Source: an uncultured Actinomycetes bacterium
GTDB taxonomy: Bacteria; Actinomycetota; Acidimicrobiia; IMCC26256; PALSA-555
NCBI GenBank assembly: GCA_903899845.1
Contig: CAIUKV010000038.1
Span: forward strand, 346 to 64,345
Direction of reading: 5' to 3'
DNA: 64,000 nt
Below the pieces are notes generated by a model. The model searched no databases. It saw nothing but the letters and a program-made list of their open reading frames with translations, and was not told where the DNA came from. Positions 6,251 through 53,182 of the stretch are shown in pieces. Position numbers and translations under genes: made by a program. The stretch's first letter is position 1; every line of letters begins with the position of its first letter.

Positions 6251-6285
6251 TCGGCGTGCGGCCGGGTCGCCTCAGGCGCGTCGGC

Positions 6286-29384: not shown

Positions 29385-29393
29385 GGCCCCGCA

Positions 29394-29414: not shown

Positions 29415-29417
29415 GCA

Positions 29418-31573: not shown

Positions 31574-31646
31574 GGTGTCCCCCCTCGTCGGCGCCTCGTC
31601 GGCGGTCCGGATCGTAGGCCGGAGCCGGCGCCCACGCCCGGGGCGC

Positions 31647-32441: not shown

Positions 32442-32488
32442 CGGGGCGGGAGGCTAGGCCGTCGGCCCCGCCCGCGCCCCGCCCGGGC

Positions 32489-32506
32489 CCGGACCCGGGG
32501 GTCCGG
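32489..32506. promoter_or_regulatory. inverted repeat CCGGACCC-GG-GGGTCCGG in a divergent intergenic region (operator candidate)
   Basis: 8+8 nt perfect arms between the hotdog gene (start 32441, minus) and the ADH gene (start 32614, plus). Confidence 0.3.
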
Positions 32507-32613
32507 ACCGGGGGGTGCGGCGCGGGTGGTGGGGCGGGGGTGGTGCACCCCGGCCGGAGTCGGTACGTTCCCCCCGGACGGCACCGGGAGGGTGCCCCGT
32601 GACGGGAGGGCCG

Positions 32614-34373: not shown

Positions 34374-34376
34374 CCC

Positions 34377-36895: not shown

Positions 36896-36924
36896 CCGGG
36901 GTCGGACCCCCCCGGCCGGATGCC

Positions 36925-36930
36925 TAGGCT
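36925..36930 (+). promoter_or_regulatory. -10 box TAGGCT, leaderless start ATG 36937
   Basis: TANNNT 6 nt upstream of the start. Confidence 0.5.
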
Positions 36931-36936
36931 GACCGC

Positions 36937-39054
36937 ATGGCAGCTTCGGCCTTCTCCCGCCTGCTCGCGTCCGGCGCCATCGGGACGATGACGCTGCGCA
37001 ACCGAATCGTGATGCCGGCGATGGACCAGAACTCGTGCGACGGCGACGGGCACATCACCGATCGCAACGTCGCCCACTACGAGGCCCGGGCCCGCGGCGG
37101 GGTCGGGCTCCTGATCCTCGAGACGTCCGCGGTGGCGTACCCGGTGGGCGCGACGTCGCGGCACCAGCCCTCGCTCTCCGACGACGCCTGCATCCCGGGC
37201 CTGGCCCGCCTGGCCGAGGCCGTGCACGCCCACGGCACCCGCATGGCGGTGCAGATGTGCCACCACGGCAAGACCGCGGGCATCGACGTGATCGAGGGCC
37301 GGGAGCAGATCATCCCGTCGGTCCCCGTTCCCGACGACGAGATGTCGTTCGACCACCTCACCATGGACGAGATCATGCGGCTCGCCGGGACCACCGGCGG
37401 CAAGATGCCCGAACGACGGGCCGCGACCATCGACGAGCTCGCCTGGGTCGTGCAGTGCTTCGCCGACGCCGCCGCCCGCGTCCAGCAGGCCGGGCTCGAC
37501 GCGGTCGAGATCCACGCCGCGCACGGCTACCTGATCTCCACCTTCCTCTCGCCGAAGTACAACCGGCGCACCGACGAGTACGGCGGGTCCACCGAGAACC
37601 GGGCCCGCTTGCTGTGCGAGGTGGTCCGGGCGATCAAGGCCCGCTGCGGCGACGGGTTCCCGGTCATCGTGCGGCTCGACGCGACCGAGCACTCCGAGGG
37701 CGGGATCACCCCCGACCTCGCCGCCGACCACGCCCGCCTGGCCGAGGCCGCCGGCGCCGACGCGATCCACGTGTCGGCGAACTCGCCGCGTGCGGTCGGG
37801 ACCGGCTTCACCGATGCCCCCCTTCCCCGCCTCCCGGGGCAGTACGTCGACTACGCCCGCACGGTGAAGGCGGCGGTGTCGGTCCCGGTGATCGCGGTCG
37901 GCCGCATCATGCCCGAGCAGGCCGAGGCGGTCCTCGCCGAGGGCGTGTGCGACTTCGTGGCCATGGGCCGCCAGCTCCTCGCCGACCCCGATCTCCCGAG
38001 CCGACTCGCGGCCGGCCGCCCCGACCTGGTGCGCACCTGCATCAACTGCTACGTGTGCGTGGCCGAGAACTTCTGGGACGGCGCGCCCGTCTGCGCGATC
38101 AACGCCGACCTCGGCCACTACGACCGGCCTCCCGTGGCCCCCGCAGCCCCGGCGCGCCACGTCGTCGTCGTCGGTGGTGGGCCCGGAGGGCTCGAGGCCG
38201 CCCGGGTCGCTGCGGGACGGGGCCACCGGGTGACCCTGCTCGAGCGGGCACCTCACCTCGGCGGCACCGCCCGGTTCTCGGCCCTCACCACGCCCATGAA
38301 CGGCGAGCTCGTGCGCTACCTCACCGCGGCGGTCACCGACGCCGGGGTCGACGTGCGCTGCGGGGTGACCGCCACCCCCGAGTCGGTGGCCGGGCTCGCG
38401 CCCGACGTCGTGGTCGTCGCCACCGGCGCCCGCCGGGACCGACCCGACGTCCCCGGCGCCGATCTCCCGCACGCCCTGTCGGGCGACGACCTCCGGGCCC
38501 TGCTCACCGGCGACGACCCTGCGGCCGCCAAGCGCCTCGGCCTCGGGGCCCGCGTGCTGGTCGGCACCGGCCGCCGCCTCGGCCTCACCGACGACATGGA
38601 CTCCGTCCGGCGTCTCTCGACCCGGTGGATGCCCGTCGGCCGCACGGTCGTCGTGGTGGGCGGTGGGCTCGTCGGGCTCGAGCTCGCCGAGTTCCTCGCC
38701 GAGCGCGGCCGCACGGTGACCGTGCTCGAGGCGGGCGACAAGCTGGGGACGGAGATGGCCCACCCCCGGCGGGCCCGGGCCATCCACGAGGCCCGCAGCC
38801 ACGGCGTCACCCTGGTCACCGGCGCGACCCTCACCGCCATCGGGGCCGACACCGTCACCTTCACCGTCGGCGACGAGACCCGCACCGCGCCGGCGGCCCA
38901 CGTGATCTTCGCCACCGGGGTCCACGGCGACACCCGGCTCGCCGACGCCCTGCGCGACCGCGGCCTCGAGGTCCACGTCGTGGGTGACGCCGGCGAGGTC
39001 GGCTACATCCAGAACGCCGTGGCCACGGGCAACGCCGTGGGCCGTTCCGTCTGA
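36937..39054 (+). CDS. NADH:flavin oxidoreductase / 2,4-dienoyl-CoA reductase (FadH)-like
   Basis: ORF 36937..39054. OYE-like N-terminal domain (MPAMDQN, HAAHGYLISTFLSP), then VVVVGGGPGGLEAA and VVVVGGGLVGLELAEFL dinucleotide folds. TAGGCT lies 6 nt upstream of the ATG. Confidence 0.9.
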   Translation: MAASAFSRLLASGAIGTMTLRNRIVMPAMDQNSCDGDGHITDRNVAHYEARARGGVGLLILETSAVAYPVGATSRHQPSLSDDACIPGLARLAEAVHAHGTRMAVQMCHHGKTAGIDVIEGREQIIPSVPVPDDEMSFDHLTMDEIMRLAGTTGGKMPERRAATIDELAWVVQCFADAAARVQQAGLDAVEIHAAHGYLISTFLSPKYNRRTDEYGGSTENRARLLCEVVRAIKARCGDGFPVIVRLDATEHSEGGITPDLAADHARLAEAAGADAIHVSANSPRAVGTGFTDAPLPRLPGQYVDYARTVKAAVSVPVIAVGRIMPEQAEAVLAEGVCDFVAMGRQLLADPDLPSRLAAGRPDLVRTCINCYVCVAENFWDGAPVCAINADLGHYDRPPVAPAAPARHVVVVGGGPGGLEAARVAAGRGHRVTLLERAPHLGGTARFSALTTPMNGELVRYLTAAVTDAGVDVRCGVTATPESVAGLAPDVVVVATGARRDRPDVPGADLPHALSGDDLRALLTGDDPAAAKRLGLGARVLVGTGRRLGLTDDMDSVRRLSTRWMPVGRTVVVVGGGLVGLELAEFLAERGRTVTVLEAGDKLGTEMAHPRRARAIHEARSHGVTLVTGATLTAIGADTVTFTVGDETRTAPAAHVIFATGVHGDTRLADALRDRGLEVHVVGDAGEVGYIQNAVATGNAVGRSV

Positions 39055-39065
39055 CCGGCGGCGCC

Positions 39066-40145
39066 GTGACCCTGAGCGTGGCGATCGTCGGGAGCGCCGG
39101 CGCGTGCGGACGTCAGCTCGCTGCCCAGCTGCTCGACCGGCGCACGGTCGCGCCGACGGCCCGCCTCCAGCTCGTGGTGCACCACGACGGGATCAGCGCC
39201 ACCGAGGGACACGGGCTCCGGGCCGATCTGCGCGACGCCTTCGCCGACGACGCGCCGACGATCGAGCTGGTCGAGCACCCCGACGACGTCGTCGCCGACG
39301 TGGTGGTGATGCTCGCCGGGGCGACCCTGCCGAGCGACCCGAACGCCGCCATCGACCGGGCCGGTCTCGCGACCGGAAACTTCGCGGTGTTCCGTGAGTA
39401 CGCCGATGCCCTGAGCCGCCGCGGTGGACCCGCGCCCTGGGTCGTCGTCCAGTCGAACCCGGTCGAGCTCGGCGTCGCGGTCTTCGCCGAGGCGCTCGGT
39501 CCCGACCGGGTGATCGGGGCCGGCGCGTACTCCGACACCCTGCGCTTCCGGCGCGAGATCGCCGACGGACTCGGTCGGCGCCGCCCCCAGGTCCACGGCT
39601 TCATGGTCGGCCAGCACGGCGACCACCTGGTGCCGGCGTGGAGCACCGTGGCCGTCGACGGCATCGACGCCGATGCGCTCGCGGACTGGATCCGCGGCCA
39701 GCGCCGGGACCGCCCGCTCACCGGGCTCCCCGACGAGATCCGCGCCACCCGCGACGCGTTGGTCGCCCAGGTGGGACGGGGCGAGATCGACGAGGCCTTC
39801 CGGGTCCTCGCCGGGTGCCCGGCCGACCTGCGGGCAGCCGTGAAGCCCTTCCTCGTGCACTACACCGCCGGGCGGACCACGGAGATGGTCACCGCCCACG
39901 CCGTGGCCGACCTCATCGGGATCCTCACGCGCGGCACCCCCGAGGTCGTGTCGGTGCAGGTCGCCCTCGACGGTGCATCCGCCGGCGCGGGCCTGACCGG
40001 GGTCGGGGCGATCCCCGTGACGCTCGACCGTGTGGGCTGGACGCCCGCTCCGGTCGTGCTCGCCGACGACGAGGACGCCGCGCTGCGGGCCGCGCTCGAC
40101 GCCGCGCGGGCGCTCCGGGCGCAGATGCCCGACCGGGCCACCTGA
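39066..40145 (+). CDS. lactate/malate dehydrogenase family oxidoreductase
   Basis: ORF 39066..40145. VAIVGSAGACG, VVVQSNPVE, GQHGDHLVP (catalytic His block). Confidence 0.75.
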   Translation: MTLSVAIVGSAGACGRQLAAQLLDRRTVAPTARLQLVVHHDGISATEGHGLRADLRDAFADDAPTIELVEHPDDVVADVVVMLAGATLPSDPNAAIDRAGLATGNFAVFREYADALSRRGGPAPWVVVQSNPVELGVAVFAEALGPDRVIGAGAYSDTLRFRREIADGLGRRRPQVHGFMVGQHGDHLVPAWSTVAVDGIDADALADWIRGQRRDRPLTGLPDEIRATRDALVAQVGRGEIDEAFRVLAGCPADLRAAVKPFLVHYTAGRTTEMVTAHAVADLIGILTRGTPEVVSVQVALDGASAGAGLTGVGAIPVTLDRVGWTPAPVVLADDEDAALRAALDAARALRAQMPDRAT

Positions 40146-40164
40146 ACGCCACCCGACCGGCGCC

Positions 40165-40170
40165 TACGCT
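40165..40170 (+). promoter_or_regulatory. -10 box TACGCT, leaderless start GTG 40177
   Basis: TANNNT 6 nt upstream of the start. Confidence 0.45.
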
Positions 40171-40176
40171 CCTCCC

Positions 40177-40971
40177 GTGCTCGACGGGATCTACCGCCTC
40201 CCCGGCTGGCTGGTCGTGGCCATCGGGCTCGTCCTGTTCTCCGCTGCGGCCCTGGCTGCCCGCGGGCTCGCCGAGCGCCGGGCCGACGCCGGGCGCCGGG
40301 CCCGCATGGCCACCATCGCGGCCCCCCTCACCCCGGCCTTCGCCGCGCTGTTCTCGGTGATGATCGCCTTCACCGTCGTCGCCGAGGCCCAGCACCTCCG
40401 GACCGTCCAGAGCCTGGCCAACGACGAGGCCGCGGCGGCCGCGCGCCTTGCGTGGGCCGCGACCGCTTCGGTACCCGAGCGGGCCCGGATCCAGTCCGAC
40501 CTCGCCGAGTACCTCGACGCCGTCATCGCGGTGGATTGGGGGGACCGCGACGAGAGCGGCCGCACCCCGGCTCGTCTCGCGCGCGCCACGCAGCGACTGG
40601 AGACCGCAGCCCGGGGGGCGGCACGGGGTCTCACCTCACCCGAGGCCGCCGAGACGCTCAGCGCACTCGACGCGGTCACCACGCTCCGACGTCAGCTCGT
40701 CGCCGAGTCCAGCCGCACGCTGCCGGCGCCGTACCTGCTCGTGCTGCTGCTGACCGGGCTCGCCCTCGTGGTCAACGTCTCGGTGCTCACGCTCGGCGCC
40801 GGCCGCCGCGCGCTCTGGCTGATCCCCGGGATCGTGGTCGTGGTCGTCGCCGCCCTCAGCCTGTTGGTGGGGATCTCCGCGCCGCTGTCCGGACCGCTCC
40901 AGCTGAGCCCCACGGCGATCGAGCGGGTCGCGATCGACCTGCGCGCCGGGCTCTTCCGACTGGCGCCCTGA
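40177..40971 (+). CDS. DUF4239-like membrane protein
   Basis: Real part of ORF 40030..40971 from VLDGIYRLPGWLV. TM helices at both ends with a helical middle region. TACGCT lies 6 nt upstream of the GTG. Confidence 0.6.
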   Translation: MLDGIYRLPGWLVVAIGLVLFSAAALAARGLAERRADAGRRARMATIAAPLTPAFAALFSVMIAFTVVAEAQHLRTVQSLANDEAAAAARLAWAATASVPERARIQSDLAEYLDAVIAVDWGDRDESGRTPARLARATQRLETAARGAARGLTSPEAAETLSALDAVTTLRRQLVAESSRTLPAPYLLVLLLTGLALVVNVSVLTLGAGRRALWLIPGIVVVVVAALSLLVGISAPLSGPLQLSPTAIERVAIDLRAGLFRLAP

Positions 40972-40984
40972 GCCCGTTCCGGGC

Positions 40985-42106
40985 TCAGCGGGCGACGACC
41001 CCGGGGAGGTCGGCGAACTTCACCACCTCGCACGTGGGGGTGACGATCTCGCCCTCGGGGAGGAAGAACCGGAAGAACATCGTGCCGAGGTTGCGGCCCT
41101 CGGTGTCGATCCAGTTCGGGTGGCCCGGGTCGGTGTGGGCGAGCACGAGGGTGTAGCCGCCGTCGGGGTCGAGGACCGTGTTGGCCCGGTTCCGGCTCAC
41201 CTGCCGGTTCACGTAGTCGTACATCTGGGACCATCGGTTCCAGAGGCAGAGGTTGGCGAAGCGGCACTCGGGCCACCGTCCCCGGACGACCAGGGCCTCG
41301 TCGTCGCCGATGAGGAACGGCGCCATCGCGTACGCGGCGTCGAACGCGGCGAAGGCCAGGTTGCCCGGCACCACCGGTGGACGGAACTCGTTGGGCACCC
41401 GCGACACGAAGGGGATGTCGACGTCGGGCGCCGGGGCCGGGTTGGCGATCGTCTTGGTCCGCACGTGCGTGATCACCCGCTGCAGCGCGGCCGCGACCCG
41501 TTCGTCCCCCCAGCGGGGTGGGGCCGGGGGCCGGTCGATGCACTCGATCGCGAGGGGCACGTGGAGGTCCTGCGCGGCCGCGGCCGACACCGGCCACTCG
41601 AAGTAGTGGCGCGTGGTGATCCGACCACCGCCCTCGGGGACCGCGAGCCAGTTCCGATCGCTCGGGGCTCCACCGAGTCGGATCGTGTACGCGCCGTCGG
41701 GAGCGACGTCCATGTCGTCGTCGCGCAGGACCCCCGAGGTGTGCGTCGCGTACGCGCCGTCGGCGGCACCCGCCTCCATCGTGAACGACGTGTAGACCGC
41801 GCCGGCGAGGTTGCCGCGCACCACGTACTCGTGTCCGGCGGCGACGGGCGTCTCGAAGTAGACGGCGTCGGCGTTGTCCCCGGTGAACGACCGGGTCGGC
41901 GACACGATCCGGTGGAACACCGGCCGCAACGGATCGAGCTCCTGGTGCGAGTAGAGCGCGCTCTGCAGGATGTGGGTGAGGTTCCGGAAGCCCTCGGCGA
42001 CGTCGTCGTCGGTCATGCCCGGGCCGGGCACCACCCACTCGTCCGCCACCTGGCCCAGCAGCGCCACCAGCTCGGCGAACCTGGCTCGGGACTGCAGCTC
42101 GCTCAC
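40985..42106 (-). CDS. DUF1214-family protein
   Basis: C-terminal 373 aa of ORF 40985..43555, from VSELQSRARF. GGGGGAG SD upstream. Blocks DNADAVYFETPV, TTRHYFEW and WNRWSQMYDY. Confidence 0.8.
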   Translation of the reverse strand: MSELQSRARFAELVALLGQVADEWVVPGPGMTDDDVAEGFRNLTHILQSALYSHQELDPLRPVFHRIVSPTRSFTGDNADAVYFETPVAAGHEYVVRGNLAGAVYTSFTMEAGAADGAYATHTSGVLRDDDMDVAPDGAYTIRLGGAPSDRNWLAVPEGGGRITTRHYFEWPVSAAAAQDLHVPLAIECIDRPPAPPRWGDERVAAALQRVITHVRTKTIANPAPAPDVDIPFVSRVPNEFRPPVVPGNLAFAAFDAAYAMAPFLIGDDEALVVRGRWPECRFANLCLWNRWSQMYDYVNRQVSRNRANTVLDPDGGYTLVLAHTDPGHPNWIDTEGRNLGTMFFRFFLPEGEIVTPTCEVVKFADLPGVVAR

Positions 42107-42223
42107 GGCTCCCCCTCTCGGCCCGGGACCCGGGCCCGGCGGGGGCCATTGTCGCCCACGCCCGGCGGGGGCGCACGGGGCCGGGCCGGAATCCCCCGGG
42201 CGCCGCGCCGGTTGGCCCCGTCC

Positions 42224-43210
42224 GTGACGTGGACTCCCCCCGACCTCGCGGTGGTGGGCTACCCCCAGCGCCTCGTGGCCGACCACCGGGCCCTGCTCGC
42301 CGCCGCCGCGGACGCCGGGCTCGCCGCCGAGCTGGTCGATCCGTCGCGCCTCGGCCTCGCCGTCGTGGACGGACGGGTGCAGGGCCTCGTGGACGGGGAG
42401 CCCCGCACCCCGGCCGCGGTGCTGCCCCGGGGCGTGAACCGCCCGTGGCCCTTCGTCCGCCAGGTCTGCACCGCGTGGGCCCGGGCCGGGGCGGTCGTCC
42501 TGCCCACCGTGGCCGCCGCCGACCGTTGCGCCGACAAGCTCGAGACGCTGGGCCGGCTCGCCGAGCGCGGGGTTCCGGTGATGCCCGCGGTCGGCGTCCT
42601 GCCCGGACCCGGCACCGCCCTCGGACCGCTCGCCGCGACCCCGGTCCTGGTGACCAAGCCCGCCCGCGCCTCGAAGGGCCGAGGGGTGTCGGCGGCCGAC
42701 GCCGCCACGACCCACGACCACCTGCGGACCGTCCTCCCGCTCGTGGACGGGCACGCCGACCACCAGGTCGTCCAGCCCCGCGCCTCGGGCTGGGGCGTCG
42801 ACCATCGGGTGGTCGTCGCCGACGGGACGGTCGTCGCGATGACGCGACGGACCGCGCCGCCCGGCGGCCTCGTGACCAACGCCCCCGAGGCCCGGGTCGA
42901 GGATGTCGTCGATCCCGCCGGCGACGAGCCCGAGGTCGCCGCGGTCGCGCTCGCCGCCGCCGCAGCGCTCGACCTCGAGTTCGGCGGCATCGACGTGATC
43001 GTCGATGCGGGCCGGGCGGTGGTGCTCGAGGCCAACGCGTGGCCCGGCCTCGCCGCGCACGTGCGCGGCCCGGGCGTCGCCCGGGTGCTGGTCGGGCTGG
43101 TCCGGCGGGCACTGGAGCCCGCCGTCGATCAGGTCGGGACCGCTCTGCGCCCGCCGTGGACCCACGCCGCGAGGGCCGGCGGCACCTGGGCCGCGATGAT
43201 CGCCTCGTAG
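42224..43210 (+). CDS. ATP-grasp (RimK/alpha-L-glutamate ligase-like) protein
   Basis: Tail of ORF 41120..43210 from VTWTPPDLAVVGY. Blocks VLVTKPARASKGRGV, VVQPRA and GGIDVIVDAGRAVVLEANAWPG. The 3-prime end overlaps the next gene by 82 nt. Confidence 0.7.
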   Translation: MTWTPPDLAVVGYPQRLVADHRALLAAAADAGLAAELVDPSRLGLAVVDGRVQGLVDGEPRTPAAVLPRGVNRPWPFVRQVCTAWARAGAVVLPTVAAADRCADKLETLGRLAERGVPVMPAVGVLPGPGTALGPLAATPVLVTKPARASKGRGVSAADAATTHDHLRTVLPLVDGHADHQVVQPRASGWGVDHRVVVADGTVVAMTRRTAPPGGLVTNAPEARVEDVVDPAGDEPEVAAVALAAAAALDLEFGGIDVIVDAGRAVVLEANAWPGLAAHVRGPGVARVLVGLVRRALEPAVDQVGTALRPPWTHAARAGGTWAAMIAS

Positions 43211-44043
43211 TCGGCCTCGAGGTCCGGATCGAACGCCCCGCTCCGGCGGGCGGCCCGGAAGAACGCGGCGTCGTCCCGCCACATCCCGACGACCGCGTTC
43301 GGCGCATAGTCCGACGCCCGGGCCTGCATCTGGGAGAACGCGACCGCATCGGCCACGGCGGCGTCGCGGGCCGCGTCGGGCCCGAGCCCGAGCAGCGCCG
43401 CGATCCGGCCGATCTCCGCCGTCCGGTCCTCGGTGAGGTCGACGTAGTGGAACAGCCCGATGGCCGGATCGTCGGCCGCGTCCCAGAACGTGCGCCAGTG
43501 GTGCAGGCAGCGCTGCAGGGACGACAGCGAGTACGGCGGGTTCGTGCGCACCCACTCGCGCAGGCGCACCTCGGGATCGGGTGGCGGCCCCGGCGTCGGC
43601 CCGAAGTCGGCGAGATCATGGTTGCCGACGGCGCGCTCACGCAGCGCGAGCACCCGGTCCATGTCGAGGTTGGCCTGATGGTCCACCATCGAGCGGGCCA
43701 TGTCGTGGGGGTCGCGGCCCACGCACACGTAGGTCACCCCGGGCTCGCGCGGAAGCCCGTCCATGGGCGTGTGGGTCTTGATCACCCGCCGGCCGTCCTG
43801 GGCGTCGAGGACCGCGACCACCACGTCGATCGCCTCGACCTGCTGGTCCAGCCACGGCGACAGGACCGAGACCGGTGCCCCGAGCTCGACCGTGCCCCGC
43901 ACGAGCATGCAGCAGATGGTCTGGGTCCAGGTCGTCCCCGCCTTGGGCGGCGTGCTCACCACCACGTCACCGGCGCGCAGCGCGAAGCGCTCCCACCGGG
44001 CGCTGTCGTGCATGAGGCTTCGGTAGCGGACGCGTTCGGACAT
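43129..44043 (-). CDS. sulfotransferase domain protein
   Basis: ORF 43129..44043. PSB loop PPKAGTTW, KTHTP, and 3-prime-PB GRDPHDMARS. Confidence 0.85.
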   Translation of the reverse strand: MSERVRYRSLMHDSARWERFALRAGDVVVSTPPKAGTTWTQTICCMLVRGTVELGAPVSVLSPWLDQQVEAIDVVVAVLDAQDGRRVIKTHTPMDGLPREPGVTYVCVGRDPHDMARSMVDHQANLDMDRVLALRERAVGNHDLADFGPTPGPPPDPEVRLREWVRTNPPYSLSSLQRCLHHWRTFWDAADDPAIGLFHYVDLTEDRTAEIGRIAALLGLGPDAARDAAVADAVAFSQMQARASDYAPNAVVGMWRDDAAFFRAARRSGAFDPDLEADYEAIIAAQVPPALAAWVHGGRRAVPT

Positions 44044-44140
44044 GGCGGCCTCGGGGCGGGCGCGGCGCGGGAGCGGGGACCGCAGTCTCGCCCGCTCGGC
44101 GGTGGTGCCGCCATCCCGGTTCCCGGGCCACCGGGTTTGT

Positions 44141-44146
44141 TACCGT
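44141..44146 (+). promoter_or_regulatory. -10 box TACCGT, leaderless start GTG 44153
   Basis: TANNNT 6 nt upstream of the start. Confidence 0.45.
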
Positions 44147-44152
44147 CCGCCC

Positions 44153-46153
44153 GTGACCTACCTCCGCCGCCTCGGGCACGCCGTCATCGACGTCGACTGG
44201 GCACCGGTCTCCCTGGTGGCCGCGCTCCGCTGTGGCGCGATGGTCACCGTGCTCCTCGCCTGGGGCGTCGCCACCGACGAGGTGGCGCCGCTGATCGCCG
44301 GCGCGATCGGCATCCTGTTCGTCTGCGTCGCCGATCCGCCGGGGCCGGAGGGTCGGCGCGTCCGGACGATGGCCTGGTTCGCGCTGTGGAGCACGCTCGC
44401 CACCCTGGTCGGTGGCCTCGCGGCCGACACGTTCGTCGTGCACCTGGTCGTGGGCGTAGCGGTCGCCGCGATCGCCGGCTACGGCGGCGCCGCCGGGACC
44501 ACCGGCCCGGTGATCGGGATGCTGTCGCTCGTGGTGTTCGCGGTCTTCTCGGGCACCCCGGTCGCGATGGACGTGGCCGGGACCGATGCCCTCGTCTACG
44601 GGGCCGGTGCGCTGGTCGGCGGGGTCGTCATCGCGCTCCCAGGCCTGCGGAACCGGGCCCGAGGCCCCCGGGGCGCGTTCACCCGCCTCGCCCGCGGGCT
44701 CGGCCACGCCCGGGTCCTCGACCCCTTGTCGGCCGGCGCCGCGGTGCACGCGACCCGCGAACGTGAGTTCCTCGAGGCCGCCGCCGCCGACCGCCCCGCC
44801 CCCGAGGCGGCGGTCTGGTTCGACGCGTTGGCGGCCGCCGCGCACCAGGCCCGGCTCGGCACGCTCGGACTCGCCGTCCACGCCTCCGACGCCTCCGGCG
44901 CGGCCCGCACTGCGGTCGTGGGGTTCCTCGAGGCTGCGGCCGCCTGCTGGCGGGCGGCGGCCACCACCACGGCCTGGCCCGCGCGCCGCCCCACCCTGGC
45001 CCGGGCCCGGACCGCCCTGGACGCGGCCGCGGCCACGCTCCGCGCCGGCGCAGACCCGACCGCGGTGCGCCTCGCCGCCGACGTCCAGAGTGGCCTCGAC
45101 GCCATCGCCGACACCCTCCTCGCCCCCTGGCCGGTGGGGATCCGGACCGGTCGACCCACCGCGCCCCGGATCGCGACCGCCGTCGCCGCCCGCTGGGCCG
45201 AGACCCGGCACCGGATCGTCGCCCACGCCGGTCGCTCCGATCCGCTCGTCCGCCACGCGGTCCGCCTCGCCGTCGTGTTCGGCGTGGCCATCGCGCTCTC
45301 GCAGGCACTCGACCTCCCCCACCCCTACTGGCTGCCGATGACCGTGGCCTGGATCAGCCGGCCCGGTCAGGGCGACACCACCGTGCGGGTTGCGGCTCGC
45401 GTCGCCGGCACCGTCGTGGGAGTGCTCGTGTCGGGCCTCGTCGTCCTCGGCCTCGACCCCGGCCCCTGGGCCCTCGTCGGGTGCATCGGGCTCAGTGCCG
45501 TGCTCGCGATCTCGTTCCTGGCCGCGAACTACGCCATTGCGGTCACCGGGATCACCACGTTCGTCTTCTTCCTCTTCACCCTCGCCGGCGAGCCGGTCGG
45601 ATCGTCGCTCTCCTCGCGCCTGCTCGCGACCGTGCTGGCCGGGATCCTCGTCGTGCTCGCCGCGTTGATCTGGCCCACCCGCACGGGCACCGCGGTCAGT
45701 GCGAGCCTCGGCGACTACGCCGCCGCGCTCGCGGCCTACGCCGGGCCGACACTGGCGGGCACGGCCCTCCTCCCCGACGCGCGGGAGGTCGCGCACGGCA
45801 CCGTGCTCGACGCCCGGACCCGGGCCGTGACCGATCTCCACGCCGCCGAGTTCGAGATCGGGGCCCGACGCCTGCACCCCGAGACCGCCCACTCGGTGCT
45901 CGAGGCCCTGCACCGCGCGACCGCCCTGTGCCTCGCGACCGAGCTGGCCGGGGCCACCGCCGACGACCGGGCCGCCGCGGCCGCGGTGCGCACCGAGCTC
46001 GTCGACCTCCAGACCCGCCTCACCGAGACCGACACCGGCCGCGGCGTCCCGGCACGCGACCATCCTCCCGGCCCCGATCACGCCGTGCACCGGGCGATCC
46101 GCCGCGCGCACACGGCGCTCGACGCGGACGCGGCGCGGCACGCCCGGGCCTGA
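44153..46153 (+). CDS. FUSC (fusaric-acid-resistance/aromatic acid exporter-like) family membrane protein
   Basis: Real part of ORF 44042..46153 from VTYLRRLG. Two multi-TM blocks separated by a soluble Ala-rich region, including HPYWLPMTVAWISRP. TACCGT lies 6 nt upstream of the GTG. Confidence 0.75.
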   Translation: MTYLRRLGHAVIDVDWAPVSLVAALRCGAMVTVLLAWGVATDEVAPLIAGAIGILFVCVADPPGPEGRRVRTMAWFALWSTLATLVGGLAADTFVVHLVVGVAVAAIAGYGGAAGTTGPVIGMLSLVVFAVFSGTPVAMDVAGTDALVYGAGALVGGVVIALPGLRNRARGPRGAFTRLARGLGHARVLDPLSAGAAVHATREREFLEAAAADRPAPEAAVWFDALAAAAHQARLGTLGLAVHASDASGAARTAVVGFLEAAAACWRAAATTTAWPARRPTLARARTALDAAAATLRAGADPTAVRLAADVQSGLDAIADTLLAPWPVGIRTGRPTAPRIATAVAARWAETRHRIVAHAGRSDPLVRHAVRLAVVFGVAIALSQALDLPHPYWLPMTVAWISRPGQGDTTVRVAARVAGTVVGVLVSGLVVLGLDPGPWALVGCIGLSAVLAISFLAANYAIAVTGITTFVFFLFTLAGEPVGSSLSSRLLATVLAGILVVLAALIWPTRTGTAVSASLGDYAAALAAYAGPTLAGTALLPDAREVAHGTVLDARTRAVTDLHAAEFEIGARRLHPETAHSVLEALHRATALCLATELAGATADDRAAAAAVRTELVDLQTRLTETDTGRGVPARDHPPGPDHAVHRAIRRAHTALDADAARHARA

Positions 46154-46210: not shown

Positions 46211-47185
46211 TCAGGAGCCGTGACGACCGAGCGCGCCGCCGTGCCGGTCGCGGAACTCGCGCACCGAGTACCCGGTCACCACCGCGCCGGCGGGGCCGCC
46301 GCGCGCGGTGCCGGCTCGGGCGAGCCCGAAGACGGGCGCCAGCTCACCGAAGTACCCGCCCGGCGCGACCACCTGGAGGATCTCCTCGCCCCCGCCGACG
46401 AGGGCCCGGACCACCTCCACCGCACCCGTCTCCACCTCGTAGACGAGCTCGCCCCGGTCCCCCTGGCGGAACAGCACCTCGCCGGCCCCGAGCTCCCGCC
46501 GCTCGGACGCGTGCTCGGAGGGTGCGGCCCGGGGGGTGAGCTCGACCAGCCGATCGGCCAGCGGGACCAGGCGCTCGTCGTGGGTCGCGATCACCACCGT
46601 CCGGCCCGGCGCGGCCAGGTCGCGCAGGTGACGGATCACTGCGTCGACCTGGATGTAGTCCAGCGATGCCGTCGGCTCGTCGGCGATGATCAGGGGCGGC
46701 TCGAGCGCGAGTGCCCGGGCGATGGCGACCCGCTGCTGCTGGCCACCCGACATCGCGCCGGGGCGGTGGCGGGCGCGCTCGGCCAGCCCGACCATGGCGA
46801 GCAGCTCGTCGGCCCGGGCGGCCGCGTCGCGGCGGGAGACCCCGGCGGTGACCATCGGCAGGATCACGTTCTCCCGGGCGGTGAGGCTGGCGATCAGGTT
46901 GAACCCCTGGAAGATGAAGCCGAGACCCCGCTGGCGGTAGCGCATCAGGTCACGCCCGGCCAGCGCGGTGACCTCGGTGCCGCCCACGGTCACCGTGCCG
47001 GAGGTCGGGGTGAGCAGCGACCCGAGGATGGAGAGCAACGTCGACTTGCCCGAGCCGCTCGCGCCCAGGAGCAGGACCATCTCCCCCGACTCCAGGTCGA
47101 GGTCGTATCCGTCGAACGGACGTACCGCGTACCCACCGCTGGAGTACTCGACGACCAGGTCGCGGATCTGCACGTGCGCCATCAC
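46211..47185 (-). CDS. ABC transporter ATP-binding protein (MacB/FtsE-like) fused to a C-terminal cNMP-binding domain
   Basis: ORF 46211..47185. ABC motifs [25 protein letters not shown]. Then a CAP-type domain ([40 protein letters not shown]). The start overlaps the permease stop. Confidence 0.9.
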
Positions 47186-48231
47186 GACCCCCCGAACGCC
47201 AGGGCCGGGTCGACGGTCAGGGCCCGACGGGCGGCGGCGATGCTGGCGAGGACGCCCACGACCAGTCCGACCACGACCAGCTGCACCACCGACGCCGCGG
47301 TCATCTCGGCCCGGGCCGGCATGCCGAGCTCGATCAGCCAGGCGATCGGCACGGCCACGACCGCCGCGACCAGCGACACCACGACCGACTGCACCAGGAG
47401 GCTGCCGACGATCACCCGCCCCGGCGAGCCGGTCGCACGCAGGATCGCGAAGCTCCGGGTCTGCTCGATGACGCTCAGGTACGTGATCGCGCCGATCACG
47501 CCGAGCGCGACCAACCAGGTGAGGAGGGCGACGAAGTCGATCGTCCCGGTGGCCCGCTGCACCACCAGCGTGAGGCCGTTGATCGTGTCCTGGTTGGTCG
47601 CCACCGCGGTACCGGGCGGAGGGTCGACGATCGACCCGTCGACCCCGATCCCCATCACGAACGGCTGCCCGTCGAGCACTGCGGCCTGCGCGCCGTCCAC
47701 CGTCATGAAGATCGTCGGCGACCCCGCGTAGTACATGCCCCGGTCGAGCAGGCCGACCACTTCGACCTCACCCACGGTGGAGCGCAGGCGGCTCCCCAGC
47801 CCGACCCTCAGGTTCTTCGTGACCACCGCCTCGTCGTCGGCCTGGGGCATCCGCCCCTTGCGCAACCGGAAGTCGGCCGGCTCCTCCGTGGTGCCGAACC
47901 CGACCAGGTTGACCACGGCGTTGCGGGGCGCGAGGACGGTGGCCCGTCCGGCCACGACCGGGTGGACGTCTCGGACCCCGGGCGCAGCGGCGACGGCGGC
48001 GACCTCGGCCTCGGGGATGAGCGCGATCCCGGTGAAGGGGCTGCGGGTGCCCTCGTGGACGACCCATTCGTCCACCCCGAGGAGCTCGGTCAGCTGGCGG
48101 GGCTCGGCGTTCAGCGCGACCTTGATGCCCTGGACCGCCAAGGCGATCGCGAACACGACCGCGACGACCAGCACGGCGATCACCACGCGGCGCAGCCGGT
48201 GCTGCAGCTCACGAAGGCTGTACATCCACAT
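47182..48231 (-). CDS. FtsX/MacB-type ABC transporter permease
   Basis: C-terminal 349 aa of ORF 47182..48624, from MWMYSLRELQ. One TM, a large extracytoplasmic loop, then three C-terminal TM helices. Confidence 0.85.
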   Translation of the reverse strand: MWMYSLRELQHRLRRVVIAVLVVAVVFAIALAVQGIKVALNAEPRQLTELLGVDEWVVHEGTRSPFTGIALIPEAEVAAVAAAPGVRDVHPVVAGRATVLAPRNAVVNLVGFGTTEEPADFRLRKGRMPQADDEAVVTKNLRVGLGSRLRSTVGEVEVVGLLDRGMYYAGSPTIFMTVDGAQAAVLDGQPFVMGIGVDGSIVDPPPGTAVATNQDTINGLTLVVQRATGTIDFVALLTWLVALGVIGAITYLSVIEQTRSFAILRATGSPGRVIVGSLLVQSVVVSLVAAVVAVPIAWLIELGMPARAEMTAASVVQLVVVGLVVGVLASIAAARRALTVDPALAFGGS

Positions 48232-48275: not shown

Positions 48276-49109
48276 TTAGTCGCGGTGTGCCACCCGGGCG
48301 AGGCGGGCCTTGAGCGCGGTGGTGGCGCCGCCGGGGTAGGCGCGGCCCCGCACCGGCACCCGTCGGCGTCCCAGTGCGAGGTCGAGCCGACGGGCGTCGA
48401 CCACCGCTGCGGTCCGGGCGGTCGAGAACCCCACGGACAGGCCGACCGACGGCGCATCGCCGACGACCACCCAGTGGAAGACGTCGGCGGGGATGAAGAC
48501 GCCGGTCTCGGGATCGAGGTGCACCACCTGGGCCGGCGGGAGCGCGACCGGGTCGGCCGGGGCGCGGTAGTGGGCGTGCACACGCCCGTCGTGGCGGCGC
48601 CGGTCGGGCTCGGCCTCGACCCACACGGTCTTGGCGCCCGAGATCTGCAGCAGCAGGTTGTGGTGCCGGTCGGCGTGGGCGGGCACCACCGCTCCGGGCG
48701 GTGAGACCAGCGCACCCAGGTTGACCCGGATGACCCCGCCCTCGTCGGCGCCGACGCAGGCCCGCACCTCGTGCTCGATCGCCCGGGCCAGGTCGGCGAA
48801 CTCGGCCAGCAGCTCGAGGTTGGCCAGGGTGACGTAGCCGGGGACGGTGGCATCACCCCGCACCGCGGCGACGGGATCGGGGTGCGGCGCGGCCAGGCAC
48901 CGGACCGCGCGCGGGTCGGACTGCACCGCGGTGCCCACCACCCACGCCCGGGGCGCCCGGGACGCGATGCGGGCGAGGGACTCCGGGTCGAGCGGCGCGC
49001 CGGCCGACACGCAGTGCCCGAGGCGGGCCGCCGGCACCGCTGTGAGCGCGGCGAGTCCGTCCGGCAGCGCCACCCGGGGCGCGGCCTGGGCGGTCGTCGG
49101 GATGCTCAA
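48276..49109 (-). CDS. JmjC/cupin-type putative 2OG/Fe(II) oxygenase (copy B)
   Basis: Downstream part of ORF 48276..49241. HxD in PAHADRHHNLLLQISGAKTVWV and distal His in DVFHWVV. I favour the TTG at 49109, which overlaps the small-ORF stop (TTGA); GTG 49073 is an alternative. Confidence 0.65.
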   Translation of the reverse strand: MSIPTTAQAAPRVALPDGLAALTAVPAARLGHCVSAGAPLDPESLARIASRAPRAWVVGTAVQSDPRAVRCLAAPHPDPVAAVRGDATVPGYVTLANLELLAEFADLARAIEHEVRACVGADEGGVIRVNLGALVSPPGAVVPAHADRHHNLLLQISGAKTVWVEAEPDRRRHDGRVHAHYRAPADPVALPPAQVVHLDPETGVFIPADVFHWVVVGDAPSVGLSVGFSTARTAAVVDARRLDLALGRRRVPVRGRAYPGGATTALKARLARVAHRD

Positions 49110-49297
49110 TCCTCGCCGCGGGCGAACGCGGCACTCGGGAGCCCGGGATCCGAGAGCTTGACGATCCCGATCAGGGCGCAGTCGACCGGTGTCCGACGGG
49201 CGATGCGGGGGGCTTCGTACGCCACGGCTCCCGACCCGCACGGGGCGTCGCGGTGGAGATCGGACACGGACATCCTCCTGCTCGTCGGTCCCGTCAC
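49106..49297 (-). CDS. small ORF (63 codons; 53-55 from the internal starts), candidate precursor peptide
   Basis: ORF 49106..49297: MTGPTSRRMSVSDLHRDAPCGSGAVAYEAPRIARRTPVDCALIGIVKLSDPGLPSAAFARGED. 54 of 63 codons end in G/C, against 27 of 44 in the competing frame. GTGA overlap with cupin A stop, TTGA overlap with cupin B start. An internal AGGAGG lies 6 nt before GTG 49267. Confidence 0.5.
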   Translation of the reverse strand: MTGPTSRRMSVSDLHRDAPCGSGAVAYEAPRIARRTPVDCALIGIVKLSDPGLPSAAFARGED

Positions 49298-50025
49298 GCT
49301 ACCGGCGCCGGGGGCGGCCCGCCACGGTCCGCCGCCCGCTTCGCCTCGAGCGCGGCCGCGGTCGCCTCGGTGACGTCGGTGCGCAGCACCGCGGTGAGCG
49401 CCCGCGAGCGGCCGGTGCAGCCGGTGACCGCGTGGAAGCAGAATGCAGGCAGCGCGACCGCGTCGCCCGGCTCGAGGACGATCTCCTCGATCCGGTCGGG
49501 CAGCCGGTCGGGGTTGGCCCGGTTGCGCCCCACCGACACCGCGCGCATCGTCCGCTCCACCTCCGGATCGTCGTACCAGCCGACCGCCAGCGTCTTGGTG
49601 CCCTCGAGCTGGAGCAGCACGTGGTGGCCGACGTCGCAGTGGAACGGCACCCGGGTCCGGTCGGCGCCGAGGAACACGATCAGGTCGACCCCGGTCGGGG
49701 TCTCACCGGCGACCCGGGCGGCGAGCTGCAGTGGCGCCGCCAGCCGGAGGGCGGCCGACCGATAGGGCTCCACGGTCGCGAGCCCGGTCAGCATGACCCA
49801 CGAGTCCCCCCGGTCCAGGTCGGCGATGACCTCGGCGACCGGGCGGGGGTCCCGGGTGACCCGGCCGTCGGGGAGCAGGTCGGGCAGGTCGACCGCCCGA
49901 TGGTGTTCGAACCGTTCGGGCGGCAGCGTGGCCGCGACTTCGGCCAGGGCCGGGAGCGTGAACGCCTCGGGCTCGGGGATCGGCACGGACACCCGCACCG
50001 GCTCGGGACTGCGCAGATCGATCAC
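49294..50025 (-). CDS. JmjC/cupin-type putative 2OG/Fe(II) oxygenase (copy A)
   Basis: ORF 49294..50025. HxD in VPFHCDVGHHVLLQLEGTKTLAV and distal His in FCFHAVT. Confidence 0.7.
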   Translation of the reverse strand: MIDLRSPEPVRVSVPIPEPEAFTLPALAEVAATLPPERFEHHRAVDLPDLLPDGRVTRDPRPVAEVIADLDRGDSWVMLTGLATVEPYRSAALRLAAPLQLAARVAGETPTGVDLIVFLGADRTRVPFHCDVGHHVLLQLEGTKTLAVGWYDDPEVERTMRAVSVGRNRANPDRLPDRIEEIVLEPGDAVALPAFCFHAVTGCTGRSRALTAVLRTDVTEATAAALEAKRAADRGGPPPAPVA

Positions 50026-51125: not shown

Positions 51126-52193
51126 TCAGGCCGGGGTCGCGGGCAGCGGGCCGTGGTCGAGGTGGGGCAGCACCCACTCCCCCACCCGGCGGCACTCGTC
51201 GCGGTGCGGGTACCCGGAGAGGATGAAGGCCTCGATCCCGAGCGCGCGGTACGCCTCCAGCTTGGCCACCACCTGGTCGGGGTCGCCGACGATCGCCGCC
51301 CCGCAGCCGCTGCGACCGCGGCCGATCCCGGTCCACAGGTGCTCCTCGACGAACCCGTCGTCGGCGGCGGCGCCGCGCAGCTCGGCCTGGCGGCGCACGC
51401 CGGTGGACGCGCTGTCGAGCGAGCGGGCCCGGATCGCCGCGCCGGTGGCGTCGTCGAGCGCGGCGACGATGCGCTCGGCCGCGGCCCGGGCCTCGGCCTC
51501 GGTCGGACGGACCACCACGTGCACGCGGTAGCCGAAGCGGAGGCGGCGGCCGTGCCGCGCCGCACGCGCGGTGAGGTCGGCGATCACCTCGGCGATCCGG
51601 TCGAGGGTGTCAGGCCACATGAGGTAGACGTCGGCGTGCTCCGCCGCGACCTCGCGCGCCTCCTCGGAGAGCCCGCCGAAGTACAGCGGCGGGCACCGAC
51701 CCGAGACCGTGGTGATCCGCGGCGGCTCGAGGTCGAGGCGGACGAACTCCCCGTCGGCGTGCACGGGGCTGCCGTCGAGCAACGCCCGCAGGGCCGCCAT
51801 GGTCTCGGACGTGCGCCGGTAGCGGGCCGGGCCGTCGAGCGCCTCACCGGGCATCTCCGACGAGATCACGTTGACGGTCAGGCGCCCGCCCGACATCCGG
51901 TCGAGGGTGGCGATCTGGCGGGCCAGCTGCGGGACCCAGAGCTCACCGCAGCGCATGGCCACCAGGAGTCGGATCCGGTCGGTCCGGGCCGCGACCCCGC
52001 CCGCGAACGTCACCGCGTCGATGCCCAGCGCGTAGCCCGAGGGCAGCAGCACGTTGTCGAACCCGAGCGCCTCGGCCTCGGTGACGATCGCGCCGCAGTG
52101 CTCCCACGAGCTCAGCAGCGCCGGATCCACCACCCCGAGCTGCTCGTAGTCGTCGTCGCAGAGCGCGGCGAACCAGCTCACCTCGCAGGTCAC
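51126..52193 (-). CDS. LLM-class flavin-dependent oxidoreductase (SsuD/alkanesulfonate monooxygenase-like)
   Basis: C-terminal 355 aa of ORF 51126..52493, from VTCEVSWFAAL. Luciferase-like blocks GFDNVLLPSG and GRLTVNVISS. GTGA overlap with the upstream stop. Confidence 0.85.
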   Translation of the reverse strand: MTCEVSWFAALCDDDYEQLGVVDPALLSSWEHCGAIVTEAEALGFDNVLLPSGYALGIDAVTFAGGVAARTDRIRLLVAMRCGELWVPQLARQIATLDRMSGGRLTVNVISSEMPGEALDGPARYRRTSETMAALRALLDGSPVHADGEFVRLDLEPPRITTVSGRCPPLYFGGLSEEAREVAAEHADVYLMWPDTLDRIAEVIADLTARAARHGRRLRFGYRVHVVVRPTEAEARAAAERIVAALDDATGAAIRARSLDSASTGVRRQAELRGAAADDGFVEEHLWTGIGRGRSGCGAAIVGDPDQVVAKLEAYRALGIEAFILSGYPHRDECRRVGEWVLPHLDHGPLPATPA

Positions 52194-53176
52194 GGGAGCG
52201 GTACCCCCTCGGCCGCCTCGATCAGGTCGTAGACGGTCGAGCGGTCGAGCGACACCGCGGCCGCGTCGACGAGAGCCCGCAGGCGATCGGCATCGCGGGT
52301 GCCCACCAGCGCGACGGGCCGGGTGGGGTGGGCGCACACGAAGGCCACGGCCACCCCGGCCCGGTCGAGCCCGTGCCGTTCGGCCACCGTGTCCATGGCT
52401 GCGCCGAGCCCGGGCCGGATCCCCTCTCCGGTGACGAGACGGCCACCGCCGAGGGGGCTCCACGCGAGCGGCACCACGCCGGTCTCGGCGCACAGGTCGA
52501 GCGTGCCGTCACGCAGTGGGTCGAGGTGGGCGAGCGAGTACTCGGGCTGGGTCGTCGCGAGCGCGAACGGCAGGTGCGCGACCAGCGCCCGGGTCTGGGC
52601 GACGGTGTGGTTCGAGACCCCGACCGCCCGCACCAGTCCACGCTCGCGCAGCGCGACGAGCGCACCCGCGACCTCCTCGGGGTGCGCGAACGGGTCGGGT
52701 CGGTGGATCTGGTAGAGGTCGACGTGGTCGACGCCGAGCCGGCGCAGCGACGCCTCGCAGGCGCGGGTGATCGCCGCCGCCGACGAGTCGTACGGCACGC
52801 CGGGCACGATGCCGCCCTTGGTCGCGAGCACGATCCGGTCCCGCAGCCCCGGCGCCGCCGCGAGCACCCGACCGAGCGTCTCCTCGCAGGCACCGAAGCC
52901 GGTCCCACCCCAGTCGAGGCCGTAGACGTCGGCGGTGTCGACCAGGGTGATCCCGGCGTCGACCGCCGCCCCGACCCAGGCGCCGTGGGTGGCGTCGTCG
53001 GCGCCGGTCATCCGCCAGCAGCCGAGCCCGACCCGGCCCACCGGCCGTCCCGCCACCTCCGGGCCCGCCACCCCCGGGCCCGCCACCCCCGGGCCCGCCA
53101 CCTCCGGGCCCGCCACACCGGTCGCACCGGCCGCTCCGGTGGCTCCGGTCGGGGTGGGCTCCCGCTCCTCGCGCAC
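52190..53176 (-). CDS. aldo/keto reductase with N-terminal (VAGPE/G) pentapeptide repeats
   Basis: ORF 52190..53179. AKR blocks DTADVYG, DLYQIHRPD, GVSNH. The second GTG (53176) lies 6 nt after TAGCAT. The N-terminal 45 aa include the 15-bp tandem repeat. Confidence 0.8.
   Translation of the reverse strand: MREEREPTPTGATGAAGATGVAGPEVAGPGVAGPGVAGPEVAGRPVGRVGLGCWRMTGADDATHGAWVGAAVDAGITLVDTADVYGLDWGGTGFGACEETLGRVLAAAPGLRDRIVLATKGGIVPGVPYDSSAAAITRACEASLRRLGVDHVDLYQIHRPDPFAHPEEVAGALVALRERGLVRAVGVSNHTVAQTRALVAHLPFALATTQPEYSLAHLDPLRDGTLDLCAETGVVPLAWSPLGGGRLVTGEGIRPGLGAAMDTVAERHGLDRAGVAVAFVCAHPTRPVALVGTRDADRLRALVDAAAVSLDRSTVYDLIEAAEGVPLP
53048..53116. repeat. tandem direct repeat, 15 bp x ~4.6, in frame (encodes VAGPE/VAGPG repeats)
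   Basis: cgccacc[t/c]ccgggcc units inside the 5-prime end of the AKR ORF (aa 22-44). Confidence 0.9.
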
Positions 53177-53182
53177 CACCCG

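Follow-up and report, generated by a model that had tools for sequence, protein, structure and literature searches.

Peptides that are made by ribosomes and modified after translation (RiPPs) are assigned to classes by their primary modifying enzyme, and the only part known to date for JmjC-fold oxygenases in RiPP pathways is that of an accessory tailoring enzyme, exemplified by CzlI and BipG. In the literature that mentions both RiPPs and JmjC proteins, only three entries proved relevant: CzlI of the curacozole pathway, a YxbC-like JmjC cupin that adjoins the precursor gene and hydroxylates a Phe residue of the precursor (PMC11575548); BipG, a JmjC ornithine hydroxylase in biphenomycin biosynthesis, which is a multinuclear nonheme iron-dependent oxidase/radical S-adenosylmethionine (MNIO/rSAM) pathway (PMC12707348); and a survey of RiPP recognition elements (RREs), which records uncharacterized JmjC homologs in "RiPP-like contexts" (PMC12710340). 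Discrete RREs of lasso peptide systems bind a [Y/W]xxPx[L/V/I/F/A] motif, and the linear polyphosphorylated peptides (LPP) of Bacillota are non-lasso RiPPs in which a discrete RRE and a leader of the lasso-like form YxxPxV are reused with no cyclase; each LPP cluster contains between one and three precursor genes, whose products are conserved in the N-terminal region and vary at the C terminus (PMC13381572). Here, we describe a short open reading frame (ORF) located between two cupin genes, cupin A and cupin B, on the minus strand of a 64-kb stretch with a G+C content of 74% from an uncultured Acidimicrobiia bacterium (contig CAIUKV010000038.1); this entire stretch is called the window. Judged by comparison with related loci, the ORF is a real, conserved gene, and its product is probably a 53-residue RiPP precursor that would be guided by an RRE, oxidized by two JmjC oxygenases, and exported by an adjacent ATP-binding cassette (ABC) pump.

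The locus resembles lasso peptide systems in combining a stand-alone RRE of the PqqD family with a Y-x-x-P-x-(I/V) leader motif whose Tyr lies 17 residues before a conserved Gly, which matches the spacing in lasso leaders. It differs from them in that neither a cyclase nor a B2 protease was found in the window (approximately 47 of its 57 called genes were scanned) or in related loci, as far as their genes were annotated or scanned, in that position −2 is occupied by Leu, and in that no macrolactam acceptor is conserved; furthermore, the extended consensus xxRxxVDxxLIG is specific to the present family, whose precursors can be multi-cassette proteins. With LPP, the family shares the lasso-like leader, the discrete RRE, multiple precursor genes, and variable C termini. 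Two of the related loci, designated by L-numbers in the following (P-numbers denote homologs from the protein database), also carry an HprK-like kinase and an uncharacterized nucleotidyltransferase (NTP_transf_5) beside PqqD, cupin(s), and peptides, namely the divergent loci L030 (3061..8442; the same as L002) and L025 (880..4120). The same kinase-transferase pair serves as the accessory set in LPP clusters and in lasso clusters of the paeninodin type, and its presence suggests phosphorylation as an additional modification in some members of the family. The operon in the window, on the other hand, has no HprK-like kinase, NTP transferase, or SipW-type signal peptidase, and no signal peptidase was found among the genes examined. 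Conversely, LPP clusters are devoid of cupins, the remainder of the LPP leader (VLxHQxIxFETxxS) is unrelated, and LPP belong to Bacillota, whereas the present family occurs in Actinomycetota, including Acidimicrobiia.

The comparison with CzlI is based on structural homologs and genomic context rather than on direct sequence comparison. As in the present locus, an enzyme of the JmjC subfamily is encoded beside the precursor; the structural homolog ranked first is YxbC (1VRB) both for CzlI and for cupin B; and the Phe on which CzlI acts has a counterpart in a recurrent aromatic residue in the core of the present family. CzlI, however, is a nonessential tailoring enzyme in a cyanobactin-like azole pathway and possesses its own E1-like recognition domain, whereas the two paralogous cupins are the sole modifying enzymes of the operon and presumably depend on the PqqD-type RRE for recognition. 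BipG, NO66, MINA53, YcfD, FIH, and JMJD5 have in common with the two cupins the JmjC fold, the HxD/E...H triad, and hydroxylation of peptide or protein side chains as the known or expected activity, but this group has no associated RRE or leader peptide, and the sequence identity of the cupins to solved JmjC structures is only 12 to 22%. Macrocyclization of RiPPs by an alpha-ketoglutarate-dependent dioxygenase has reportedly been described by Xia et al. in 2025 (J Am Chem Soc 147:26693); papers that cite this work name it together with alpha-ketoglutarate-dependent enzymes that form monoaryl cross-links and place it in the alpha-KG-HExxH literature.

In the preliminary description of the locus, the small gene was given as a 63-codon ORF (49106..49297, minus strand, GTG start), and its translation matches the ORF listing. 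A recount likewise reproduced the reported numbers of codons ending in G or C, which are 54 of 63 in the ORF frame and 27 of 44 in the competing frame (49110..49241), translation of which would lengthen cupin B at its N terminus. The length of the ORF alone is no more than expected by chance, as the surrounding 5.5 kb contain 38 ORFs of at least 40 amino acids, and because an ORF of this size means little at 74% G+C, the case rests on comparative evidence. The G+C content at third codon positions (GC3) of 0.86 is locally the best of the three frames. A protein database search with the peptide yielded four homologs of 41 to 55 amino acids (P0001 to P0004), whose contigs share the gene order PqqD, cupin A, small ORF, cupin B, FtsX, and ABC ATPase, and the peptide frame is open in all syntenic loci. 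Ratios of nonsynonymous to synonymous substitution (dN/dS) were calculated by the Nei-Gojobori method for a gap-free block of 34 codons, comparing the window with diverged relatives. In the peptide frame the ratio was 0.21 to 0.35 for the diverged pairs, whereas values in the other two frames, including that of the cupin B extension, were mostly between 1.0 and 3.8; purifying selection was thus evident in the peptide frame only, and the nucleotide differences concentrate at the third codon position (e.g., 4/5/14). An Rfam scan of positions 48800 to 50500 gave no match to an RNA family, so the conservation is not accounted for by an RNA element. The reading of the stretch as an N-terminal part of cupin B is refuted by the close homologs of this protein, which have 277 to 279 residues and start at the position of the TTG in the window, and by a spacer of 47 to 117 nucleotides (nt) that separates cupin B from the peptide gene in four lineages (L009, L010, L013, and L016). 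The proposal of a real small gene encoding a candidate precursor peptide, and not the N terminus of cupin B, therefore held in every test that had been named for it, i.e., the open frame in syntenic loci, the codon substitution pattern, the split into leader and core described below, and the search for a cupin B extension. The accompanying expectation that automated annotators would overlook the ORF was correct for L009 and L010, where it was missed, but homologous ORFs have been called on most related contigs.

The translation start can be placed within this ORF. As originally noted, AGGAGG (49279..49274) lies 6 nt before an internal GTG (49267..49265), which allows a product of 53 residues. 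This arrangement is conserved: an (A/G)GGAGG box is followed, after a spacer of 6 nt, by a start codon, which is GTG in L006, L007, L016, and L027 and TTG in L001. The ten codons upstream (49297..49268) show no synonymous versus four to five nonsynonymous changed codons and no codon position bias. Because the Shine-Dalgarno (SD) sequence, spacer, and start are conserved and the ten preceding codons have no coding signature, the peptide most likely starts at GTG 49267, as far as sequence comparison can tell. An ATG at 49273, chosen by gene callers in L003 to L005, was rejected as the start; it abuts the SD sequence with no spacer and is replaced by AAC, ATC, or CTC in relatives. The ORF had also been described as doubly translationally coupled. 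Both overlaps are present as described: the first GTG (49297..49295) overlaps the TGA stop codon of cupin A (49296..49294) in GTGA, and the TGA of the peptide (49108..49106) overlaps the TTG of cupin B (49109..49107) in TTGA. The downstream overlap was confirmed, although for close relatives only, as it occurs in the window, L003 to L005, L008, L021, and L027 and is replaced elsewhere by the 47- to 117-nt spacer. The upstream GTGA start has neither an SD sequence nor coding constraint, and the apparent coupling at this site is probably an accident of the open frame.

An alignment anchored on the Tyr residue and comprising 22 units from 12 loci revealed 18 gap-free residues with the consensus Y-x-(A/P)-P-x-(I/V)-x-x-R-x-x-V-(D)-x-x-L-I-G, in which Y, P, R, and L are invariant. 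The peptides consist of a short variable N terminus, this 18-residue block, and a variable tail, with mean pairwise identities of 13% for the residues preceding the block, 57% for the block, and 15% for the tail. In the window, the block begins with Y-E-A-P-R-I and fits the motif recognized by discrete lasso RREs. This leader motif had been overlooked in the preliminary description, in which two Cys residues were highlighted instead; these are not conserved in the family alignment and were rejected as functional features. A back-translated DNA probe for the block matched the window once (0 expected) and, in 596 Gb of species-representative genomes, only three contigs, which were precisely those already known via cupin A; no cupin-free contig was among the matches, so that the motif offers a specific handle for genome mining. 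In a metagenome collection, the probe matched ten contigs, of which nine carry an adjacent cupin homolog and the tenth is only 1.2 kb long. The peptide motif also persists in loci whose cupins share only 27 to 38% identity.

The most recurrent element of the tail is S-A-x-F, present in 22 of 43 distinct units and always located 6 to 13 residues past the block, compared to approximately 0.09 occurrences expected from the window background. Distant members have tail motifs such as SAAFR, SAVFR, SPAW, NPIW, and QP(V/I)W, and the window peptide holds both S-D-P and S-A-A-F. The number of precursor genes per locus ranges from one to six. In addition, ORFs with up to about five leader-core repeats were observed in L002/L030, L022/L029, L023, L031, and L032 (L022, 300..1120, minus strand; L029, 300..1030, plus strand; L031, 6717..7260; L032, 6747..7150). 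In the multi-cassette ORFs given with coordinates, the units comprise the 18-residue block and a core of approximately 15 residues ending in SAAFR, SAVFR, or SAMFR, and each core thus has its own recognition sequence. Taken over all loci, the small gene with its leader/core architecture is always found beside JmjC oxygenases and usually beside a PqqD-type RRE. Of the properties expected of an RRE-dependent precursor, three are present: a short ORF under purifying selection, a conserved leader with a variable core, and PqqD in the cluster.

The two cupins gave no significant result in PDB sequence searches, and a fold search was therefore required. Cupin A scores just above the cutoffs of Pfam Cupin_8 and JmjC_2, and the peptide, both cupins, and a 223-residue protein encoded upstream are not covered by any NCBIfam model. 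AlphaFold2 models reached a predicted local distance difference test (pLDDT) value of 92.4 for cupin A and 80.8 for cupin B, the first 32 residues of which are predicted to be disordered, and both models display the JmjC double-stranded β-helix fold. The top Foldseek matches were NO66, MINA53, FIH, JMJD7, JMJD5, YcfD, and YxbC for cupin A and YxbC (1vrb, 7zcc), NO66, YcfD, and JMJD5 for cupin B, with E values of 1e-10 to 1e-8 and template modeling (TM) scores of about 0.45 to 0.6 for the JmjC hydroxylases matched by either protein. Among these enzymes, NO66 and MINA53 act on His and YcfD and JMJD5 on Arg. The HxD...H triad and a basic residue are found in both cupins: H129, D131, H198, and K144 of cupin A do not vary among 11 homologs or among a further 36 of greater distance, and H145, D147, H212, and K160 of cupin B are invariant among its homologs. 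From this conservation, we infer that the Lys residue binds 2-oxoglutarate. Cupins A and B are paralogs according to hhalign (probability, 99.9%; E = 1.4e-33; 23% identity).

Cupin type and core motif appear to covary. In the lineage with cupin A only (L012/L018/L026), the cores contain S-D-P without SAxF; in the lineages with a B-like cupin only (L022/L029 and L023/L024), SAxF occurs without S-D-P; and where the two cupins occur together (the window clade and L002/L030), so do the two motifs. This pattern, which has exceptions and draws on about three informative lineages, suggests as a working hypothesis that S-D-P is the site of action of cupin A and the aromatic site that of cupin B.

The gene for the PqqD-family RRE is located two genes upstream of the peptide gene, and orthologs are found directly upstream of cupin A in L001 to L006, L010, L016, L021, L030, L031, and L032. 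Its best NCBIfam match is lasso_PqqD_Strm, and its best genuine PDB match, covering residues 6 to 81, is TbiB1, which we take to be a lasso peptide RRE.

Considered together, these data are consistent with the following pathway. The peptide would be translated from the SD-proximal GTG, and the RRE would bind the 18-residue block in the same manner as RREs bind lasso and LPP leaders, as suggested by the motif and the adjacency of the genes. The RRE may then present the C-terminal tail to the two paralogous JmjC oxygenases, whose fold and intact active sites predict oxidation of tail side chains. Hydroxylation is the most likely reaction and would most probably take place at S-A-x-(F/W) or close to it; S-D-P may be a second oxidation site. 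The recurrent aromatic residue is the best candidate target, with CzlI, a YxbC-like JmjC cupin beside its precursor gene that hydroxylates Phe, as the precedent. Based on synteny, a MacB-type ABC transporter would export the product.

Several observations weigh against this pathway or parts of it. The operon encodes no protease for removal of the leader. SAxF is missing in some members with both cupins, such as L009 and L010 with GKGSDIPPGPRTPA, and the target residue is therefore uncertain. The RRE reaches only 46 bits with lasso_PqqD_Strm, for which the cutoff is 70 bits, and its match to TbiB1 is weak (E = 0.038). Hidden Markov model searches detected no PqqD gene in L012/L018/L026 and L013, although the flanks of these loci are long, and some members of the family may therefore not depend on an RRE. 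The GC3 values of the neighboring genes (0.92 to 0.96) exceed that of the small ORF, and all members of the family originate from metagenome-assembled genomes (MAGs) of uncultured organisms or from metagenome contigs.

The family, with its lasso-type leader, PqqD chaperone, and JmjC pair, appears not to have been described before. Its homologs are annotated as "hypothetical" or "JmjC domain-containing" and come almost exclusively from MAGs of Actinomycetota, including Acidimicrobiia, apart from one Dormibacteria bin and unbinned metagenome contigs. The close clade is rare, with 10 and 8 clusters in 5.8 billion proteins; an exhaustive profile search returned 55 representative clusters at an E value of ≤1e-30. 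When distant loci were sampled using a 10-sequence subset of the 36 distant cupins, seven of nine again carried YxxP peptides. Among the genes scanned, no lasso cyclase, B2 protease, radical-SAM maturase, YcaO protein, or lanthipeptide enzyme is encoded in the operon or up to a distance of approximately 35 kb from it. The RRE, the two JmjC oxygenases, the precursor, and the ABC exporter form a compact, portable cassette of less than 4 kb, in which the oxygenases are the only modifying enzymes and the leader is a recognizable offshoot of the lasso leader. Within the RiPP paradigm, the system is plausibly a new class. A more specific version of this idea, to which we give slightly less than even weight, is an undescribed class defined by the JmjC pair, in which the lasso/LPP leader and RRE were co-opted and the enzymes target the aromatic residue of SAxF or xPxW and possibly S-D-P. 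The chemistry could then go beyond hydroxylation, e.g., to an aryl cross-link or a macrocycle, and multi-cassette precursors would give several products per translation. If this is true, uncultured freshwater and soil Actinomycetota and Acidimicrobiia would harbor a new scaffold class, the lasso RRE/leader module would have been rewired to other chemistry in a second natural case after LPP, and two orphan JmjC enzymes would have a defined substrate.

Among the alternatives, the one that survives best, although it is unlikely, assumes a real peptide that is not a secreted product and acts either as a scaffold or cofactor precursor resembling PqqA or MftA or as an intracellular signaling substrate of FIH-like type. 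PqqD chaperones also serve cofactor pathways, and the RRE weakly matches PQQ_PqqD; a luciferase-like monooxygenase (LLM) and an aldo-keto reductase (AKR) are encoded upstream in synteny in the window, L016, and the P0017 contig; the short SAxF motif and the repeated cassettes would suit the release of many copies of a small unit; and a cyclic nucleotide monophosphate (cNMP)-binding domain on the ATPase hints at regulation. Against these points, the ABC exporter lies within the operon in the window clade, the tails are highly variable in length and sequence, unlike those of cofactor precursors, and the oxidoreductase neighbors are not kept in divergent loci.

It is very improbable that the gene encodes a lasso precursor whose cyclase and B2 protease reside elsewhere in the genome, with the cupins serving only as tailoring hydroxylases. 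Such a role would account for the leader with Y−17, P−14, and a hydrophobic residue at −12, which fits the published RRE-binding pattern, and for the lasso-type proteins as the best named matches of the RRE; with a core starting at the conserved Gly, the window peptide would even have G1 and D7, a combination compatible with a macrolactam. No asparagine synthetase-like cyclase or transglutaminase-like protease was detected in the approximately 47 of 57 called window genes that were scanned or among the genes annotated or scanned in the related loci, however, and the acidic residue is found at position 6, 9, 10, or 13 or is absent across the family, so that an acceptor at core positions 7 to 9 is not conserved. 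Position −2 is an invariant Leu in the 22 aligned units, and not the Thr noted as typical of lasso leaders (PMC10368454). Multi-cassette precursors are not a feature of lasso systems, and in the 596 Gb of genomes the leader probe found only contigs known via cupin A.

An equally small probability applies to the peptide being an unmodified partner of the cupins or the transporter, such as an assembly factor, inhibitor, or immunity peptide. Small accessory proteins are frequent in operons, but a hypervariable tail behind a conserved RRE-type motif, the tandem multiplication of the gene, and repeated cassettes each with a recognition block fit a substrate better. Hardly credible is the absence of any gene, i.e., a cupin B extension from GTG 49241 or a noncoding spacer held open by high G+C: long spurious ORFs are common at this composition, the cupin B frame is open up to 49241, and the GC3 of the ORF is below that of its neighbors, but dN/dS separates the two frames, the putative extension has a GC3 of 0.61, close cupin B homologs lack it and are set off by a spacer in four lineages, the peptide motif outlasts the divergence of the cupins, and cupin B already begins with 32 residues predicted to be disordered.

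The features of the locus are compiled in Table 1.

TABLE 1 Features of the putative precursor locus in window coordinates
Feature	Position	Strand	Remark
223-aa protein with N-terminal hydrophobic segment	50360..51031	minus	No Pfam or NCBIfam match
PqqD-family RRE, discrete, 86 aa	50067..50327	minus	Pfam PqqD, E = 1.1e-14
Cupin A, predicted JmjC-fold Fe(II)/2-oxoglutarate oxygenase, 243 aa	49294..50025	minus	Pfam Cupin_8, JmjC_2
SD sequence AGGAGG of the peptide gene	49274..49279	minus	6 nt upstream of GTG 49267
Probable precursor peptide gene, 53 aa (MSDLHRDAPCGSGAVAYEAPRIARRTPVDCALIGIVKLSDPGLPSAAFARGED) plus stop	49106..49267	minus	Maximal ORF to 49297
Putative leader recognition block YEAPRIARRTPVDCALIG, 18 aa, numbered Y−17...G0	49166..49219	minus	Gap-free family alignment
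Variable C-terminal tail, putative core IVKLSDPGLPSAAFARGED	49109..49165	minus	Leader/core boundary inferred
S-D-P in tail	49145..49153	minus	
S-A-A-F in tail	49124..49135	minus	
Cupin B, predicted JmjC-fold Fe(II)/2-oxoglutarate oxygenase, 277 aa, TTG start	48276..49109	minus	TTGA overlap with peptide stop
FtsX/MacB-type ABC permease, 349 aa, putative exporter	47182..48231	minus	Pfam FtsX, E = 4.5e-9
ABC ATPase with C-terminal cNMP-binding domain, 324 aa	46211..47185	minus	Pfam ABC_tran, E = 7.9e-34

The compact minus-strand gene row extends from 51031 to 46211. A scan of positions 45900 to 51400 revealed no sigma-70 promoters or intrinsic terminators, and the operon boundaries are therefore based on gene spacing only. 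Synteny of the FtsX-type permease gene is kept in L003 to L005, L016, and L027 and that of the ABC ATPase gene, whose start overlaps the permease stop (GTGATG), in L003, L016, and L027. The C-terminal domain of the ATPase (Pfam cNMP_binding, E = 4.6e-12) is unusual for an ATPase of the MacB/FtsE type and is retained in L003 and L016; it hints at cNMP-regulated export. The gene for the 223-residue protein is located 32 nt upstream of the RRE gene. Versions of 220 to 223 residues are present in L003 to L005 and on the P0017 contig, an Amidohydro_2 gene occupies the corresponding position in L016, and L002, L010, and L030 lack the protein. Its membership of the system is uncertain; it could be a leader peptidase or an immunity protein, and with respect to the former it has no family match and is kept only in close relatives.

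On either side, the regions 28182..46153 and 51126..53179 are rich in redox and tailoring genes, including two P450s, several Amidohydro_2 proteins, two sulfotransferases, an alkyl-sulfatase-like metallo-β-lactamase-fold (MBL) protein, the LLM, and the AKR. Synteny of the LLM, AKR, and pyruvate kinase neighbors extends to L016 and the P0017 contig. On the minus strand at 10433..11653, at a distance of approximately 38 kb, lies a gene for a radical-SAM/SPASM protein that has a SEC-C motif at its C terminus; this protein may be a maturase of peptides or sulfatases and seems to have no connection with the locus.

A comparison of the window (49100..49300, minus strand) with L027 (601..1015) indicates that the single precursor gene of the window arose when an in-frame deletion merged two precursor genes arranged in tandem. 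The SD sequence, start, and first approximately 12 codons of "peptide 1" are joined to "peptide 2," with a loss of about 165 nt relative to the two-gene arrangement of L021, L027, and L008. The former stop/start junction TGAGCCGTGGC now encodes G-A-V-A, and the former GTG of peptide 2 remains in frame at 49225..49223, from which a 39-residue product could be made. What an in-frame deletion has left of the second precursor gene in L016 (6277..6330) encodes VAARYEPPAVA-PGEG*, with approximately 25 codons fewer than in L008, which provides further evidence of recombination between tandem leader repeats.

The MAG nearest by cupin A, L001 (90% identity), retains the SD sequence and the first approximately 8 codons of the peptide with a TTG start (5810..6300), after which synteny ends: unrelated sequence, in which a sulfotransferase-like ORF is found, takes the place of the peptide body, cupin B, and the ABC genes. 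Either the cluster has decayed or the assembly is chimeric. Between the cupin A stop codon and the SD sequence of the peptide gene, a 12-nt tandem unit (about CCAGAGCGNCGA) was observed, the equivalent region of the window being 49280..49294. Five copies are present in L001 (5735..5800), four in L027 (approximately 610..670), one in L016 (6050..6075), and none in the window, and on this pattern the unit is best described as a spacer of variable copy number in the 5′ untranslated region.

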